Below are positions 5,567-35,996 of a DNA stretch of 64,000 nt, in pieces. Position 1 is the first letter of the stretch; each line of letters begins with the position of its first letter. Position numbers and translations under genes: made by a program. The stretch is taken from positions 16,914-80,913 of the forward strand of contig CAKOTZ010000006.1 in the NCBI GenBank assembly GCA_934120395.1, given 5' to 3'. This DNA is from an uncultured Clostridia bacterium (GTDB taxonomy: Bacteria; Bacillota; Clostridia; TANB77; CAG-508). The notes below the pieces were generated by a model. It saw only the letters and a program-made list of their open reading frames with translations, ran no database searches and was not told the origin of the DNA.

Positions 5567-5893
5567 ATGAAAAAGCGGATTATTGCATTAATGGTAATAT
5601 CGCTAACGTTAGTAGTATTGCCAAGCACAAGAACATTTGCAAAATCGGACAATTTGTATCTACCACAAAATAGTATACAAATAGTAGAACTTTCAAGGCA
5701 TGGGCGAGACCATGGAGACAGATGGAGAAATCCACCGCCTCCAAGACACAGAGGACCAGACAGGCATATTCGGTCGGGGCATAGACCACCACCGCCACCA
5801 CCTCCACCTCCAAGATATAGACATAGAGATAGAGATAACAGTGCAATTTGGTGGTGGATAATAAATTCGATTATAATTGCAAATACAAGATGA
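5567..5893 (+). CDS. small secreted proline/arginine/histidine-rich protein (hypothetical)
   Basis: RBS aaaggag + ATG 5567. Signal peptide MKKRIIALMVISLTLVVLPSTRTFA, then PPPP RHRGPDRH ... PPPPPPPPP RYRHRDRD; locally GC-rich codons. Confidence 0.45.
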   Translation: MKKRIIALMVISLTLVVLPSTRTFAKSDNLYLPQNSIQIVELSRHGRDHGDRWRNPPPPRHRGPDRHIRSGHRPPPPPPPPPRYRHRDRDNSAIWWWIINSIIIANTR

Positions 5894-30148: not shown

Positions 30149-31414
30149 ATGAACAACAAATCAGCAAAGGGTATAACCCTTGTTGCCCTAATTATTACTA
30201 TAATCATTCTACTTATTTTGGCTGGAGTAAGTTTGTCAATGATATTAGGAGACAATGGGCTAATAAAAAAAGCACAAGCTAGTGTTGATGCATACCAACA
30301 AGCGGCATTAAATGAACAAAATTTACTAGATAGCATAGAAAGCTATATGGGAAATTACGGTTTACCAGAAAACACACCAACCACACCTGCAGGAACACAC
30401 GTAAAACCACCAGCAAAATGGTTAGGAACAATTGTAGATGCAGTGGCAGATGGAAAAGGCAACACATTTCCAGTGCCAAAAAGTTTTTACTACGTGGGTG
30501 GAGATTACACAAACGGAGTAATCATATCAGACGACCCAGCAGATGCATACGATGGAACAACAGATAAAACAACATGGGAATATACAACAAGTTTAGTAGG
30601 AAACCAATTTGTATGGATACCATGTACACCAGCAGAATATATAAAAACAAGTTGGGGCATGGTATATGGAGGCTATGATGCAGAAAGCGGAGCAGGAGCT
30701 GAAATGATGCAAGTAGCCAAATATGGAGGATTCTATGTAGGAAGATATGAAGCCGGCTTAGCAGACACAATAGCAGAATATACAGGAAATCAAATATCTT
30801 CTAGTTCAATTTATAATCTAGCAGGAATACCAAAATCAAAGGCAGGAGAATTACCATGGATATTTATCAGCCAAACAAATAGTAAGAAAAGTGCAGAAAA
30901 CATGTACAATACAGACGAAAAACATTCAGACTATGTAACAAGTGGACTAATAACAGGAACACAATGGGATGTAATGTTAAACAGATTTATTGGAACAACA
31001 AATGCTAATGGAGTAACTTTTACAGAAGCAGACATGAAAAATTCAAGTAAATGGGGTAATTATGCAAGTAGTGCAACAACATATACAGGAAGATCTGCAA
31101 CTCTATTTCAAAGTGGAAGTAATTGGTATATAAGTCCATGGGGAGCAAAGCAAACAGATGCAAAAACAGCAACATATACCGAATATACAACAGGAGCAAG
31201 TAAAAAAACAGAAGCATATCACACTTATGACATAGCAGGAAATGTATGGGAGTGGACGGAAGAAGTCGGACAAGGCACTGCATATCGCGTCCTTCGTGGC
31301 GGTTCTTGCGATAATGCTTCAGGTTCTTACCCAGCCTGCTGCCGCCATGGTAACAACTCTGTTTCCTTTGTGTACTATCTCGTCGGGTTCCGTGCCGTAC
31401 TTTACATCAAGTAG
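30149..31414 (+). CDS. membrane-anchored FGE-sulfatase-fold protein, DGR variable (target) protein with C-terminal VR
   Basis: 421 aa. Same architecture; VR at 31287-31402 differs from TR only at TR adenines. Confidence 0.85.
   Translation: MNNKSAKGITLVALIITIIILLILAGVSLSMILGDNGLIKKAQASVDAYQQAALNEQNLLDSIESYMGNYGLPENTPTTPAGTHVKPPAKWLGTIVDAVADGKGNTFPVPKSFYYVGGDYTNGVIISDDPADAYDGTTDKTTWEYTTSLVGNQFVWIPCTPAEYIKTSWGMVYGGYDAESGAGAEMMQVAKYGGFYVGRYEAGLADTIAEYTGNQISSSSIYNLAGIPKSKAGELPWIFISQTNSKKSAENMYNTDEKHSDYVTSGLITGTQWDVMLNRFIGTTNANGVTFTEADMKNSSKWGNYASSATTYTGRSATLFQSGSNWYISPWGAKQTDAKTATYTEYTTGASKKTEAYHTYDIAGNVWEWTEEVGQGTAYRVLRGGSCDNASGSYPACCRHGNNSVSFVYYLVGFRAVLYIK
31287..31402 (+). repeat. DGR variable region (VR) at 3' end of target gene
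   Basis: 116 nt aligned to TR 32915-33030. 12 mismatches, all at TR-A positions (A->C,G,T), affecting AAY codons (N->D,Y,H,F,Y,L; Y->C; I->L,V). Identical GC-rich 3' block atcgggttccgtgccgtact (IMH-like). Confidence 0.85.
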
Positions 31415-31525: not shown

Positions 31526-31891
31526 ATGGCGGATAATAAAAAAGAATTGATATTAATTCCAAAGTCAGAAAAATATATTCAATATATGATTGAAGTAATT
31601 ATGAAGTTGCCTCGTACAGAGAAATTTAGTATTGGAACCGAATATAAAACAGCAATGTATAAAATGCTTGAAAATATTATGCTTTTAAGCAAGGTGCGAG
31701 CAGAGGAAAAAATAAATTACATCAATTATATAGATGCTGAACTTAATGTTCAAAGAATTTTCTTGAGAATAATGTATAAAAATCAGTGGATAGACGAGAA
31801 ACGTTTTAAAGTAGCTTCAGATTTAATATATGAATTAGGAAAATTAGTAGGAGGTCTTTTAAAATTCTATGGCCAGAACATTAAGAAATAA
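31526..31891 (+). CDS. avd: DGR accessory variability determinant (Avd), four-helix-bundle protein
   Basis: 121 aa. Basic, immediately upstream of and overlapping the RT gene as in canonical DGRs. Confidence 0.65.
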   Translation: MADNKKELILIPKSEKYIQYMIEVIMKLPRTEKFSIGTEYKTAMYKMLENIMLLSKVRAEEKINYINYIDAELNVQRIFLRIMYKNQWIDEKRFKVASDLIYELGKLVGGLLKFYGQNIKK

Positions 31892-32885
31892 ATTTGATGA
31901 GTATTTAACTTACGATAATCTAATGCGAGCTCATTTAGAGAGTAGGAAAAATAAGCGTTATAAAAAAGATATCATTTTGTTTGAAATTAAACAAGAAGAT
32001 TATATTAGATATTTATTGGAAGAACTAAAAAATGGTACATATAAGCATGGAGGCTATTCAATCTTTTATGTAAGAGAGCCTAAATTGAGAAAAGTAGAAA
32101 AATCAAGATATATAGATAGGGTCGTGCATAGATGGTTAGTAGATAATTTTTTCATTGATCTATATGTACCAACTTTTATATCAACAAGTTATGCTTGTTT
32201 AAAAGACAGGGGAACGCACAAAGCAGTATGTGATGTGCAAAAAGCAATGCAGCATTGCCTAAGAATATGGAATGAATACTATATATTAAAAATGGATGTT
32301 GCTAAATACTTTCAAAGCATTGATAAAAATATTTTGTTTAATATAATAAAGAAAAAAATTAAAGATAAAAAGGTACTATGGTTGGTAGAACAAATTATTT
32401 ATTCAAATAAGGGAGAAACGGGTATAGCCATAGGAAACTATACTTCACAGATATTTGCAAATTTATATTTAAATGAAGTAGATCAATATATAAAAAAAGA
32501 ATTGAAGGTTAAATATTATTTTAGGTATATGGATGATTCGATAATTCTTGTAAAAACTAAAAATGAGGCAAAATTAATATTAGAAAAAATAAGACAATTC
32601 TTAAGGGAAAATTTAAAATTAGAGTTAAACTCTAAAACTCAAATATTTAAGAATAAACAAGGTGTTAATTTTTGTGGATACAAAATTAATGAATACAGAA
32701 TGAAGGTAAGAGACAGAGGAAAGAAGAAACTTAAAAAAAAGATAAAAATATTAAAAGAAAATGTGAAAAATGGTAAAATGAGTAGTAAAGAGGCTAAGTT
32801 ATACCTGTGTGGGCATGTTGGATATATTAAATATGCAGATGTTCACAATTTAACTAGCAAGCTGTTTTATTTGCCGGAAGAATAA
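31869..32885 (+). CDS. DGR-type reverse transcriptase
   Basis: 338 aa. RT motifs incl. IAIGNYTSQIFANLYL (DGR hallmark I/LGxxxSQ instead of QGxxxSP) and FRYMDDSIILV (YMDD). Confidence 0.88.
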   Translation: MARTLRNKFDEYLTYDNLMRAHLESRKNKRYKKDIILFEIKQEDYIRYLLEELKNGTYKHGGYSIFYVREPKLRKVEKSRYIDRVVHRWLVDNFFIDLYVPTFISTSYACLKDRGTHKAVCDVQKAMQHCLRIWNEYYILKMDVAKYFQSIDKNILFNIIKKKIKDKKVLWLVEQIIYSNKGETGIAIGNYTSQIFANLYLNEVDQYIKKELKVKYYFRYMDDSIILVKTKNEAKLILEKIRQFLRENLKLELNSKTQIFKNKQGVNFCGYKINEYRMKVRDRGKKKLKKKIKILKENVKNGKMSSKEAKLYLCGHVGYIKYADVHNLTSKLFYLPEE

Positions 32886-32914: not shown

Positions 32915-33030
32915 GCGTCATTCGTGGCGGTTCTTGCAATAATGCTTCAGGTTCTAACCCAGCATGCTACCGCAATGGTAACAACTCTGTTTCCAATGTG
33001 AACTATAACATCGGGTTCCGTGCCGTACTC
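32915..33030 (+). repeat. DGR template repeat (TR), 3' of RT
   Basis: Adenine-rich (26 A); in VR frame encodes VIRGGSCNNASGSNPACYRNGNNSVSNVNYNIGFRAVL with 8 AAY codons; near-identical to VR except at A. Confidence 0.85.
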
Positions 33031-33193
33031 TAATATTATTCGAGATTGTGTGTTTTACGGAATGCATACAGTGAAGTATTAGATATTAAAGAGGTTTATT
33101 CCTTCCTACTTTAGGTAAAAATGAATCAATAAAACATGTATTGGTAGTAAATTTACGAAGATACGTGTTTTATGCTATATATAAGGTGAAAAT

Positions 33194-33472
33194 ATGAATA
33201 AGTGTGTAATAAGTGGAAAAGTATTAGAAGAGATAAAGTTTGATTTCATATATAATAGTAAAAAACATGTATCTATAGCGAAATGTCCTATAAAATTAAA
33301 CAATGATTCAGTATTAAACGTTTTTGGACTAGACGATGAAGCTGATTATATGTATCGACATATAAAAGCGGGAGATATTATTGTTTGCTATGGAAAAATT
33401 AGAAGAATGGATGAAAAATTAGAAGTTGAAGTAATAGAAATAGAAAAAGTAAAGTTCAAAACGAGTCTATAA
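33194..33472 (+). CDS. small OB-fold-like (SSB/PriB-like) hypothetical protein adjacent to DGR
   Basis: 92 aa. VISGKVLEE..F.......H....I..P.....NDSVLNVFG.DD.AD...HIKAGDIIVCYGKIR......LEVEVIEIEKV pattern; fold call tentative. Confidence 0.4.
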   Translation: MNKCVISGKVLEEIKFDFIYNSKKHVSIAKCPIKLNNDSVLNVFGLDDEADYMYRHIKAGDIIVCYGKIRRMDEKLEVEVIEIEKVKFKTSL

Positions 33473-33484
33473 TTTATTTGCCAA

Positions 33485-33892
33485 TTAATTATAAATTTCT
33501 TGTAATTGTTTTTTAATCTGGTCTAGAAACTCAAAAGATTCTTTAAAACTAATATTATTCATGTCAATGGCCATTATAGACTGAATAATATTTTGTGTTT
33601 TCATGTTGTTTAAATAATCGGAGTAATTTTCAATTTTTGAATAGTTTAAATCAATAACTTCAAAAGGAATATTAAAGTTGCTTAGCTGTTTTGTATAGTA
33701 TTCTAATCTTTTTTGAGGAAATCCACATTTAGTAACGCTGTCGTTTAAATTTGTTATTTTAAAATCAAAAAGTTCTGAAATTTTTGTGGCATCTTCGTTT
33801 AGTGCAATATAAAAAATGCCACTTTTAAATAAATATATTGTTGTATTATCCTTATTCTTTAATTTTAAGTATTCTGTATATAATTTGCTCAT
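33485..33892 (-). CDS. stand-alone MutS domain I (mismatch-binding domain)-like protein
   Basis: ~135 aa. SKLYTEYLKLKNKDNTTIYLFKSGIFYIALNEDATKISELFDFKIT...CGFPQKRLEYYTKQLSNFNIPFEVIDL aligns with MutS N-terminus TPMMQQYL.LK...P..LLFyRMGDFYELF.dDA...S.LL...LT.R....MaGiP.h.LE.YL.KLv..G..V; Phe of FYE present, Glu replaced. Confidence 0.6.
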   Translation of the reverse strand: MSKLYTEYLKLKNKDNTTIYLFKSGIFYIALNEDATKISELFDFKITNLNDSVTKCGFPQKRLEYYTKQLSNFNIPFEVIDLNYSKIENYSDYLNNMKTQNIIQSIMAIDMNNISFKESFEFLDQIKKQLQEIYN

Positions 33893-34121
33893 ATATTTGC
33901 CCCCTATCATATATAAACTCATTTTGAATTCACCTGTTCATAATATAAGCATGCAAGAAAGCAAATACAATCGAAATTTGTCGAATAGTATAAAAATAAT
34001 GTAAATTGTTAGTAACCATTTGAATACTTAGGTAAAATTATATGTTTTAAATAGAATAAAAGGCTTGACAAGAGGTACAAATTTTGTATATACTAAGTAT
34101 ATACAAAAAGGGGGCTAAAAT

Positions 34122-34364
34122 ATGACGACTACAATTCAAAAATGGGGAAATAGTCAAGGAGTTAGAATACCAAAAGTAATATTAGATACTGTTAATTGGA
34201 AAGAAAATGAACAAATAACAATAGTTGTCGAGAATGGGAAGGTTATAATGGAAAAGGCTAAAGGAAAAAGAAGAAATATAAAAGAATTATTTGAAAACTA
34301 TAAAGACGAATATGAACCAATTGAAGTGGATTGGGGAGAAATGAAGGGAAGAGAAGTATGGTAA
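34122..34364 (+). CDS. mazE: MazE/PemI-type antitoxin (AbrB/SpoVT fold)
   Basis: 80 aa. IQKWGNSQGVRIPK motif. Confidence 0.8.
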   Translation: MTTTIQKWGNSQGVRIPKVILDTVNWKENEQITIVVENGKVIMEKAKGKRRNIKELFENYKDEYEPIEVDWGEMKGREVW

Positions 34365-34687
34365 AACAAGGTACAATTATAAAAATAAATTTTAATCCTC
34401 AATCAGGGCATGAACAGGCTGGATATAGACCTGCAATTGTAATAAGCAATGATATATTTAATGAAAAAACAAAATTATCAATAGTTTGTCCTATTACAAA
34501 TACTGATAATAATTTTCCATTGCATGTTTCATTAGATGAGAGAACAAAGACTACAGGCGTAATATTATGCGAACATATAAGGGCCTTAGACTTAGAAAGT
34601 AGAACATATCAAGAAGTGGAAAAAGTACCAAAGGATATTTTAAATCATGTAATAGATATTGTTTATGCAGAAATAGAAGAATTATAA
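34358..34687 (+). CDS. mazF: MazF/PemK-type endoribonuclease toxin
   Basis: 109 aa. Overlaps mazE stop (ATGGTAA); PemK-like sequence. Confidence 0.8.
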   Translation: MVKQGTIIKINFNPQSGHEQAGYRPAIVISNDIFNEKTKLSIVCPITNTDNNFPLHVSLDERTKTTGVILCEHIRALDLESRTYQEVEKVPKDILNHVIDIVYAEIEEL

Positions 34688-34744: not shown

Positions 34745-35996
34745 ATGAAAAAAAGTTTTTGCAAATTATTAGTTATTACATTAATAGTAATATTTTTAGT
34801 CCAGATAAGTGTGTATGCAAATGAAGAAGAACATGAAAATATAGAAATACAAGAAATATGGAACGAAATAAAAGAAACTGATGCAAATATTGTAAAAGAA
34901 CCTACAATAAATTCAAAGGCAGCAGTTGTATTGGATAGAAAATCAAAAACAGTAATTTTTGATAAAAATGCAAATCAAAAAAGAGCAATGGCGTCTACAA
35001 CAAAAATTATGACTGCCATTTTAGTGCTAGAAAAAGGTAATTTAAATGATTTGATTGAGGTATCACAAAAAGCTGCAAATACAGGTGGATCAAGATTAGG
35101 GTTAAAAAAAGGAGATAAAATAACATTAAATGATTTACTTTATGGATTAATGTTACGCTCTCGGAAATGATGCGGCAGTACAAATTGCTGAGCATATTGG
35201 AGGCAGTGTAGAGGAATTTGCACAAATGATGAATCAAAAAGCAAAAGAATTAAATTTGGTAAATACGCATTTTGTAACGCCACATGGATTAGATAATACT
35301 GACCACTATACAACTCCATACGAATTAGCCATATTAACAGATTATGCACTAGAAAATAGTAAATTTGCTAAAATTGTAAATACAAATACATGCACAATAA
35401 CCATTAATAATTCTCCAATAGTTTTGAATAATACAAATGAATTATTAGGTACTTTAAATGGTGTAAATGGTGTAAAAACAGGTTTTACCAATAATGCAGG
35501 AAGATGTCTTGTAACTTCTACAACGCGAAATGGATGGCAAATTGTTGTAGTTGTATTAGGTGCAGATACTAAAAGAAATAGAACAAAAGATAGCATTAGT
35601 TTGATAGAGTATACTTTTAAAAATTATGAAATTGTAAATATAAAGGATAAGTTAAAAAGAAGTTTTAATAATGAAAAGAAAAAACAGGAAGCTTTAATAG
35701 AAATTGAAAAAGGAAAAAATGATAAAATTATATTAGAATTAGGGGAGATATCTAATACAGAATATCCTATAAAAAATAGTGAATTAAAAAATTTAACTTG
35801 CAATATAGATGTAGTTCATTACATAAAAGCACCAATTAAGGAAGGCACTGTGGTAGGAAATTTGGAAGTGATGATTGGTGATAAAAATATTTGCAATGTA
35901 AATATTCTTTGTAAGTATACTGTTGATAAGAAGGGGGTGTGGGATTATTTTTCGGATTTAGTTTGTAATATAGGGAAGTATATATTGGAAATTTAA
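34745..35996 (+). pseudogene. D-alanyl-D-alanine carboxypeptidase (PBP5/DacB-like serine peptidase S11) with +1 frameshift at 35162 (extra C before GGA) inside the SGN motif
   Basis: Signal peptide, SxxK (ASTTKIMT), then ...GLMLRS | GNDAAVQIAEHIGGSVEEFAQMMNQKAKELNL... continues in +1 frame; C-terminal domain present. Confidence 0.75.

Follow-up and report, generated by a model that had tools for sequence, protein, structure and literature searches.

An MSL-type diversity-generating retroelement of gut Clostridia with an additional conserved SSB-derived accessory gene beside the RT-14 RNA

A stretch of 64,000 nucleotides from an uncultured Clostridia bacterium (contig CAKOTZ010000006.1, positions 16,914 to 80,913 of the forward strand; the whole stretch is called the window here) carries a complete diversity-generating retroelement (DGR). 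The interval of interest forms its 3' end, the full order being target gene, avd, reverse transcriptase (RT) gene, template repeat (TR), RT-14 RNA, a small gene for a protein resembling single-stranded DNA-binding protein (SSB), here named mini-SSB, and a convergent gene for a MutS-like protein (MSL). The element is a DGR of the MSL type that carries one more conserved accessory gene, SSB-derived and tied to the RT-14 RNA, and both small genes are very probably DGR accessories. The MSL half is not new and confirms published knowledge, whereas the OB/SSB-like partner and the couplings that tie it to MSL and to the RT-14 RNA appear to be undescribed so far. The original prediction for this interval, made from the nucleotide sequence alone, had pointed to a MutS-like accessory gene in DGR surveys and had called the two genes an undescribed accessory pair should none have been noted there. 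Such a gene had indeed been noted, namely MSL (PMC5758913; bioRxiv 10.1101/2024.11.15.621889), so the premise fails for the pair as a whole, and what stands of it concerns the partner and the couplings. Both open reading frames (ORFs) that it named are present where it placed them, and a structured RNA lies beside them:

33485..33892, minus strand: MSL, a 135-aa stand-alone MutS domain I with two C-terminal helices (Pfam MutS_I)
33194..33472, plus strand: mini-SSB, a predicted 92-aa SSB-type OB-fold protein (ribosome-binding site AAGGTGA 6 nt upstream)
33028..33173, plus strand: RT-14 RNA (Rfam RF02921; cmscan 122.9 bits against a gathering score of 48.1)

The mechanical ORF of MSL runs from 33485 to 33922 on the minus strand and would encode 145 aa. 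Since homologues start with MSKLY and are 135–136 aa long (133–157 aa at the widest), and the ATG at 33892 is preceded, at a distance of 8 nt, by a GGGGG ribosome-binding site, the true gene is 33485–33892, which gives the protein of about 135 aa, convergent to the TR, that had been predicted. Its assignment to domain I of MutS is borne out by a profile search with MutS_I (PF01624; 45 bits, E=1.5e-11, gathering score 20.6, aa 16–85) and by an AlphaFold2 (AF2) model (predicted local distance difference test score, pLDDT, 94.3), which Foldseek superposes on MutS domain I over about 83 residues with a root-mean-square deviation of 1.6–1.8 A and 22–26% identity. When the PDB was searched with a 40-homologue profile, MutS chains were the only matches. 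No other MutS domain had been expected, and none of domains II–V (connector, core, clamp, ABC ATPase) was found in MSL by Pfam or NCBIfam: matches in both are confined to domain I, the NCBIfam MutS equivalogs matching solely over their N-terminal 75 positions, and the protein ends at residue 135. Because domains II–V are absent, MSL cannot form a sliding clamp or signal to MutL.

In the profile alignment, 'lfksGifyial' of MSL stands against 'LFQVGDFYECF' of Taq MutS. The MSL motif F27-Y28-I29 thus retains the wedge Phe and has Ile in place of the glutamate of Phe-X-Glu, the replacement noticed in the original prediction. Among 131 non-redundant MSL relatives, taken from all loci, the Gly and Phe of G-x-F are invariant, while the Glu position is occupied by Ile (91 proteins), Thr (20), Tyr (7) or other residues, and by Glu in 0/131. 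MSL shares with canonical MutS domain I (E. coli and Taq MutS; PDB 1e3m, 1ewq) the fold and the G-x-F-Y and G-[FI]-P motifs, and differs from it in the Ile for Glu and in two helices that replace the last part of the domain. Domain I spans aa 1–85 and the helices aa 90–107 and 116–134; the latter contain the conserved motif NYSDYLNN and are without equivalent in the MutS structural match. That the whole MSL family keeps the Phe and has lost the Glu usefully constrains its mechanism.

The MSL class goes back to Wu et al. 2018 (PMC5758913), who defined it from 16 of 372 DGRs as proteins of 112–283 aa with neutral pI, always accompanied by avd and never by HRDC; the same study reported three DGR RTs with a fused C-terminal MutS_I motif. 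Msl has also been described in Bacteroides DGRs (Macadangdang et al. 2024, bioRxiv 10.1101/2024.11.15.621889), and in reviews Avd, HRDC and MSL figure as known accessories of DGRs, in one case together with CH1. The window protein falls within the published size range, has the MutS homology and a near-neutral charge, and sits in an avd-bearing DGR without HRDC (no HRDC domain was found in the eight window ORFs scanned against Pfam). No difference in kind separates it from published MSL, and there is little doubt that it belongs to this class, the assignment being one by size, MutS homology and genomic context. What sets it apart is that it represents a gut-Clostridia subfamily in which Phe is invariant, Glu absent, the C-terminus extended by two helices and the gene coupled to mini-SSB. 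Some related DGRs also differ from published ones in carrying two MSL paralogues.

The latter belong to a more distant architecture (related loci, denoted here by L and a number: L047, L048, L054, L017, L045, L050, L070, L076, L077). The first paralogue has the motif LFKSGIF[YF]I; its gene either touches or overlaps that of the RT, or is separated from it by a few hundred nt. The second has diverged (e.g. VGDFYH, GKFYY) and, where mapped (L047, L054), stands beside a convergent avd. The two-MSL architecture recalls the asymmetric MutS dimer. No match to MSL was found in phage and plasmid records by tblastn or in IMG/VR contigs by a scan; small stand-alone MutS_I proteins also occur in uncultured phages, according to BFVD. 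PADLOC has no model for MSL or mini-SSB.

Taken alone, the 92-aa protein is inconspicuous. In Pfam it gives only a sub-threshold OB match (tRNA_anti-codon, 22 bits against a gathering score of 27) and no match to SSB (PF00436) at E<=1, while 37 of 68 family members do match PF00436 at E<=0.01 (best 5.5e-7). A word-indexed search with the single sequence returned 3 close relatives. That the ORF might be an orphan gene was considered and rejected, as jackhmmer on the locus ORFs and a profile search recovered a family. Iterative searching of related-locus ORFs yielded a homologue in every locus of window-type architecture, and the resulting profile reaches canonical SSBs of these loci, which end in DDLPF. 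Applied to a large protein collection, a profile search gave 70 mini-SSB clusters of 61–130 aa, many tagged PF00436. Across 1.84 billion cluster representatives, an exhaustive search with HMMER returned 563 matches at E<=1e-3 and 268 at E<=1e-10, and since nearly all of these are 60–120 aa long, the family, whose proteins are of about 80–95 aa, is distinct from the bulk of canonical SSBs. No match was found in phage records (tblastn).

The OB-fold-like character attributed to this protein at the outset is well supported by structure prediction. In the AF2 model (pLDDT 89.9) five strands form a barrel that carries the SSB helix, and Foldseek places this model (probability 1.0) with SsbA, SsbB and a cyanobacterial SSB domain at template modelling (TM) scores of 0.76–0.82; PriB structures are also among the fold matches (TM 0.72–0.77). 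Alignment of profiles with hhalign gives 89% probability to canonical SSB, with the 10-residue L23 loop deleted in mini-SSB, whereas a search of PDB sequences with the mini-SSB profile is weak (E about 0.09 to SSBs, below a spurious BAG4 match). As judged from model and profiles, the 92-aa protein is an SSB-type OB fold. It shares with bacterial SSB (PF00436) the OB barrel with inserted helix, the MN-x-[VC]-x-L-x-G strand and the helix Tyr. Apart from the missing L23 loop, the beta4-beta5 hairpin is shortened, and the modelled chain stops a few residues past the last strand, so that neither the linker nor the acidic C-terminal tail of canonical SSB is present (the family as a whole spans 62–120 aa); most of the aromatics that stack on DNA are missing too.

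The genomic setting differs as well, canonical ssb genes lying in rpsF-ssb-rpsR or competence operons and mini-SSB in a DGR beside RT-14. In the literature searched, no description of an SSB or OB protein tied to DGRs was found, the unnamed candidates PAG1-4 of Wu et al. being left uncompared, and a guilt-by-association survey of Pfams around DGRs likewise described no such protein. A parallel lies in the HRDC-type accessories of Treponema-type DGRs, which are also small nucleic-acid-binding domains taken from DNA repair or replication and joined to avd-bearing clades. They differ from mini-SSB and MSL in having an unrelated fold, and HRDC and MSL are reported never to occur together.

The remaining parts of the element in the window are as follows:

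32915..33032, plus strand: template repeat (TR; repeat family D2), with adenine-specific differences from the variable repeat (VR)
31869..32885, plus strand: DGR reverse transcriptase (Pfam RVT_1, 62.7 bits; IGNYTSQ motif in the translation)
31526..31891, plus strand: avd, accessory variability determinant (Pfam bAvd, 63 bits; pI 9.5)
30149..31414, plus strand: DGR target gene (Pfam FGE-sulfatase and N_methyl)
28761..30023, plus strand: paralogous target-like gene, pilin-like, with a degenerate VR-like end at 29893–30010

The IGNYTSQ motif is the signature of DGR RTs. The target protein (30149–31414) combines a pilin-like N-terminal methylation motif with a C-terminal domain of FGE-sulfatase/C-type-lectin type; its VR is at 31287–31404. 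TR and VR differ at 12 positions, each of them a TR adenine, plus one C-to-T at the 3' edge. Two related contigs (L001, L002) have RT and avd 100% identical to those of the window, yet their VR bases differ at TR-adenine positions. As the VRs of such near-identical strains differ at TR adenines, the element is active. The closest informative pair, window versus L003, gives a dN/dS of 0.04 for MSL and 0.13 for mini-SSB, the ratio being saturated for every other pair.

The linkage of both genes to DGRs was assessed in loci from uncultured gut Clostridia metagenome-assembled genomes, from which all related loci derive. Eighty loci were seeded with MSL, one per species, and 68 had a flank long enough to assess; a DGR-type RT lay within 3.5 kb of MSL in 64 of them, nearly all of these with avd, and many MSL-seeded loci showed a TR/VR pair with 80–100% of the mismatches at adenines. 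Eighty metagenome loci were likewise seeded with mini-SSB, the locus scan being run with a subfamily alignment since the full family alignment is too diverse for a pattern-based scan. Among the 61 assessable ones, 51 had an RT upstream of mini-SSB (tblastn) and most of the others still had TR and RT-14. The co-occurrence with DGR RTs that had been put forward as a test is found for both genes. RT, avd and MSL occurred together in 37 mini-SSB-seeded loci, most remaining loci ending before the MSL position. Among MSL loci, mini-SSB goes with RTs close to that of the window: of the 15 with an RT of 55% identity or more to it, 14 carry the gene, the sole exception (L014) having a deletion at the mini-SSB position, and of 49 with more distant RTs none does. 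An MSL gene or remnant accompanies mini-SSB wherever the flank is long enough. MSL and mini-SSB are thus conserved, selected and DGR-linked genes.

The order and strand of the cassette genes vary while the gene set stays together. The window has target-avd-RT-TR-RT14-miniSSB with MSL convergent, the stop codons of MSL and mini-SSB being 12 nt apart; L092 has MSL-avd-RT-TR-RT14-miniSSB, all on one strand; and in L098 and L032 an MSL-miniSSB operon (3-nt gap or 4-nt overlap) is convergent to the rest of the cassette. A promoter and terminator scan performed no better than on shuffled sequences, and no terminator was found in the 12-nt gap between the convergent MSL and mini-SSB genes. Some arrangements bear on an alternative function of MSL, namely that it acts with the RT in cDNA synthesis instead of against mismatch repair, either by binding A:N mispairs in the nascent RNA:cDNA hybrid and aiding their extension by RT-Avd, or by riding with the cDNA in the ribonucleoprotein. 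The MSL ORF overlaps the start of avd or RT in L021, L047 and L054, suggesting translational coupling, MSL always co-occurs with avd, and the three RTs with a C-terminal MutS_I fusion suggest joint action. We nevertheless regard such a role as unlikely. Adenine mutagenesis is reportedly intrinsic to RT-Avd in BPP-1, MSL occurs in just 16 of 372 DGRs, the window MSL lies on the strand opposite avd-RT (avd-RT-TR being about 450 nt away), and a MutS wedge is known to act on duplex DNA but is not known to act on hybrids of RNA and DNA.

It could also be argued that one or both ORFs are passengers with no DGR role, as remnants of the host mutS or ssb genes or of a neighbouring element such as mazEF. 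Mini-SSB is frameshifted in one lineage (see below), four MSL genes (L015, L035, L037, L069) have no RT in a flank of at least 3.5 kb on both sides, and RT is similarly missing around mini-SSB in L145 and L172. This explanation is nonetheless very improbable. Both genes stay with avd-RT-TR across dozens of species despite rearranged order and unrelated outer flanks (mazEF and a PBP gene in the window, SMC-like genes in L004, a SNF2 helicase in L006); both show purifying selection and family-specific invariant motifs; mazEF is missing from most related loci; and the RT-less mini-SSB loci, since they still have TR and RT-14, derive from DGRs.

There are 10 such mini-SSB loci without RT, and 8 of the 9 tested have RT-14 directly upstream of mini-SSB. 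Six human-gut contigs among the mini-SSB loci, L145 (5558–6249), L172, L131, L127, L169 and L179, carry only TR, RT-14 and an intact mini-SSB; no target, MSL, avd or RT was found within the 1.3–6 kb of flank (up to 6 kb in L145 and L172). The six modules are 87–94% identical in nucleotide sequence to the 3' end of a complete DGR, L119, from the vicinity of the TR through mini-SSB, the identity beginning at about position 5558 of L119 or slightly earlier, just upstream of its TR (5575–5711). The L145 module is flanked by minC on one side and by an Rpn/transposase_31-like gene on the other. An origin of the RT-less loci as assembly chimeras at the VR/TR repeats was rejected, as there is no target gene upstream and independent assemblies agree. 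They may be what deletions left behind, or may serve as template modules in trans. A separate observation concerns an abundant MSL (162 member sequences on 125 contigs; 3373–3792 in L009) found in L009–L011 beside two FGE-sulfatase-type target genes, where neither RT nor avd was detectable in about 8 kb on the target-gene side and 2–3 kb on the other.

The original prediction had the 92-aa ORF between MSL and the TR. This position holds, but the RT-14 RNA, which lies between the TR and the ORF, had been overlooked. RT-14 is 146 nt long, forms three stem-loops directly 3' of the TR and ends 20 nt before the mini-SSB start codon; the covariance-model match is full length (positions 1–144 of 144). 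While Rfam classes RF02921 as 'Gene; sRNA', here and in related loci it stands between the TR of a DGR and the mini-SSB gene, a placement which suggests that the DGR RNA probably has RT-14 as its structured 3' part. It adjoins mini-SSB in all 12 related loci tested as well as in the 8 of 9 RT-less loci, also where mini-SSB is on the opposite strand. L021, a DGR without mini-SSB, also carries RT-14, with a lower score of 59 bits.

This adjacency (20 of 21 loci in total, opposite-strand and RT-less ones included) would suit a mini-SSB directed to RNA or to replication, one that binds or chaperones RT-14 or that acts like PriB at the joint between cDNA and target, loading replication to fix the cDNA. 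The PriB structures among the fold matches and the loss of most canonical ssDNA-stacking aromatics point the same way. Such a function is distinctly unlikely, however: true SSBs are the closest relatives of mini-SSB in both sequence and structure, PriB is proteobacterial and is not known from Firmicutes, and the neighbourhood of RT-14 may reflect nothing but co-transcription with the DGR RNA.

How the two accessories might act was considered in the light of what the host does to DGRs. Deletion of the host mutS raises VR mutagenesis in Bacteroides 5- to 10-fold, with an unchanged pattern and in an all-or-nothing manner (bioRxiv 10.1101/2024.11.15.621889), and the hosts of the DGR clade studied here encode canonical MutS with intact GDFYE. 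ExoI restricts a DGR reconstituted in E. coli independently of its nuclease activity, and DGR cDNA seems to favour the lagging-strand template when it pairs with the VR. We consider a model with two accessories, a mini-SSB that coats cDNA and an MSL that masks mismatches, to have slightly better than even prospects. In mutagenic retrohoming, mini-SSB would coat the single-stranded cDNA, or the exposed VR strand with which it pairs. The C-terminal tail of SSB recruits SSB-client proteins; as mini-SSB has no tail, it would not recruit host clients such as ExoI. Pairing of the mutagenised cDNA with the VR would then give a heteroduplex dense in A-derived mismatches. MSL may bind the mismatches of this cDNA:VR heteroduplex (or of the RNA:cDNA hybrid) without signalling repair, and would thereby mask them from host MutS, so that the mutagenised copy survives. 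MSL is read as a repair-incompetent mismatch binder because the Phe is kept, because the Glu, the ATPase, the clamp and the route to MutL are lost, and because E. coli MutS with E38 mutated (E38A/T/Q) still crystallises on a G.T mismatch (PDB 1wbb, 1wb9, 1wbd). Of the two parts, coating of single-stranded DNA by mini-SSB, suggested by its modelled fold, has a chance a little short of even, and masking of mismatches from host mismatch repair by MSL, for which its residue pattern speaks, is put forward tentatively. The more general proposal that came with the original prediction, that the pair shields or processes an A-mismatched or single-stranded intermediate, is plausible.

Several points weigh against the two-accessory model. 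Mini-SSB is frameshifted in L006–L008 and L018 (8405–8684 in L006) while MSL, avd and RT are intact, and MSL is cut to a 68-aa ORF in L096 and L097 while mini-SSB is kept, so neither gene is strictly required for the persistence of the other. The stacking aromatics of E. coli SSB are W40, W54, F60 and W88; only F60 has an equivalent in the window protein, and family members do not conserve it. With a median pI of 6.2, mini-SSB proteins are close to neutral, and ssDNA binding is therefore not assured. Mismatch binding by MSL alone is unproven, since the clamp domains, the main source of the DNA affinity of MutS, are absent. Given that the ExoI inhibition in E. coli is nuclease-independent, it may be mistaken to assume simple protection from degradation. 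BPP-1 retrohoming, too, is reported not to need mutS. As to the frameshifted mini-SSB, the four loci are several independent assemblies of one species, in which the target gene is in two pieces as well.

A bolder form of the model, which we regard as doubtful, takes MSL and mini-SSB together as a retroelement-encoded module that protects the cDNA and aids its integration. On the cDNA or on the VR template of the lagging strand, host SSB and its clients (ExoI) would give way to the tail-less SSB, and the MutS wedge without its Glu would hide the heteroduplex from host mismatch repair. If this is true, the pair would be a natural counterpart of the tricks used in oligonucleotide recombineering and would offer a direct way into the integration step of DGRs, which is unsolved, and the recurrent RT-less TR-RT-14-miniSSB modules could be template cassettes served in trans.

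Some neighbouring genes complete the picture. The setting of the DGR is chromosomal. Upstream of the target gene, the paralogue (28761–30023) ends in a VR-like stretch that shares 65% identity with the reference repeat copy VR1 and departs from the TR at many non-adenines; this paralogue is probably no longer, or not currently, diversified. Past MSL follow a mazEF pair, a split DD-carboxypeptidase gene, two tRNAs and a large surface protein. The mazE/mazF toxin-antitoxin pair (34122–34687, plus strand) is immediately adjacent to MSL but, being absent from most related DGR loci, lies outside the cassette. The carboxypeptidase (Peptidase_S11/PBP5) is divided into ORFs of 141 aa (34745–35170) and 256 aa (35226–35996), both on the plus strand; as contigs L001 and L003 show the same split, it is not a sequencing error of the window. 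In one species group (L148 2707–5322, L149 7013–9385, L173 3023–5638) a full-length canonical mutS with intact GDFYE lies about 2.2 kb downstream of mini-SSB, which shows that mismatch repair is available in these hosts; the proximity to the DGR may be coincidental.

Recent work has established that host MutS and ExoI restrict diversification and that the direction of replication matters. When a DGR clade brings along a mismatch binder and an SSB-like protein of its own, this points to the intermediates at which the element needs help, namely single-stranded cDNA and a heavily mismatched heteroduplex. The two proteins are small, and suited to deletion, to purification and to addition to reconstituted systems. 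MSL and mini-SSB might also make DGR-based tools for directed evolution more efficient. For the biology of the DGRs themselves, mini-SSB may bear on the unsolved step by which their cDNA is integrated.

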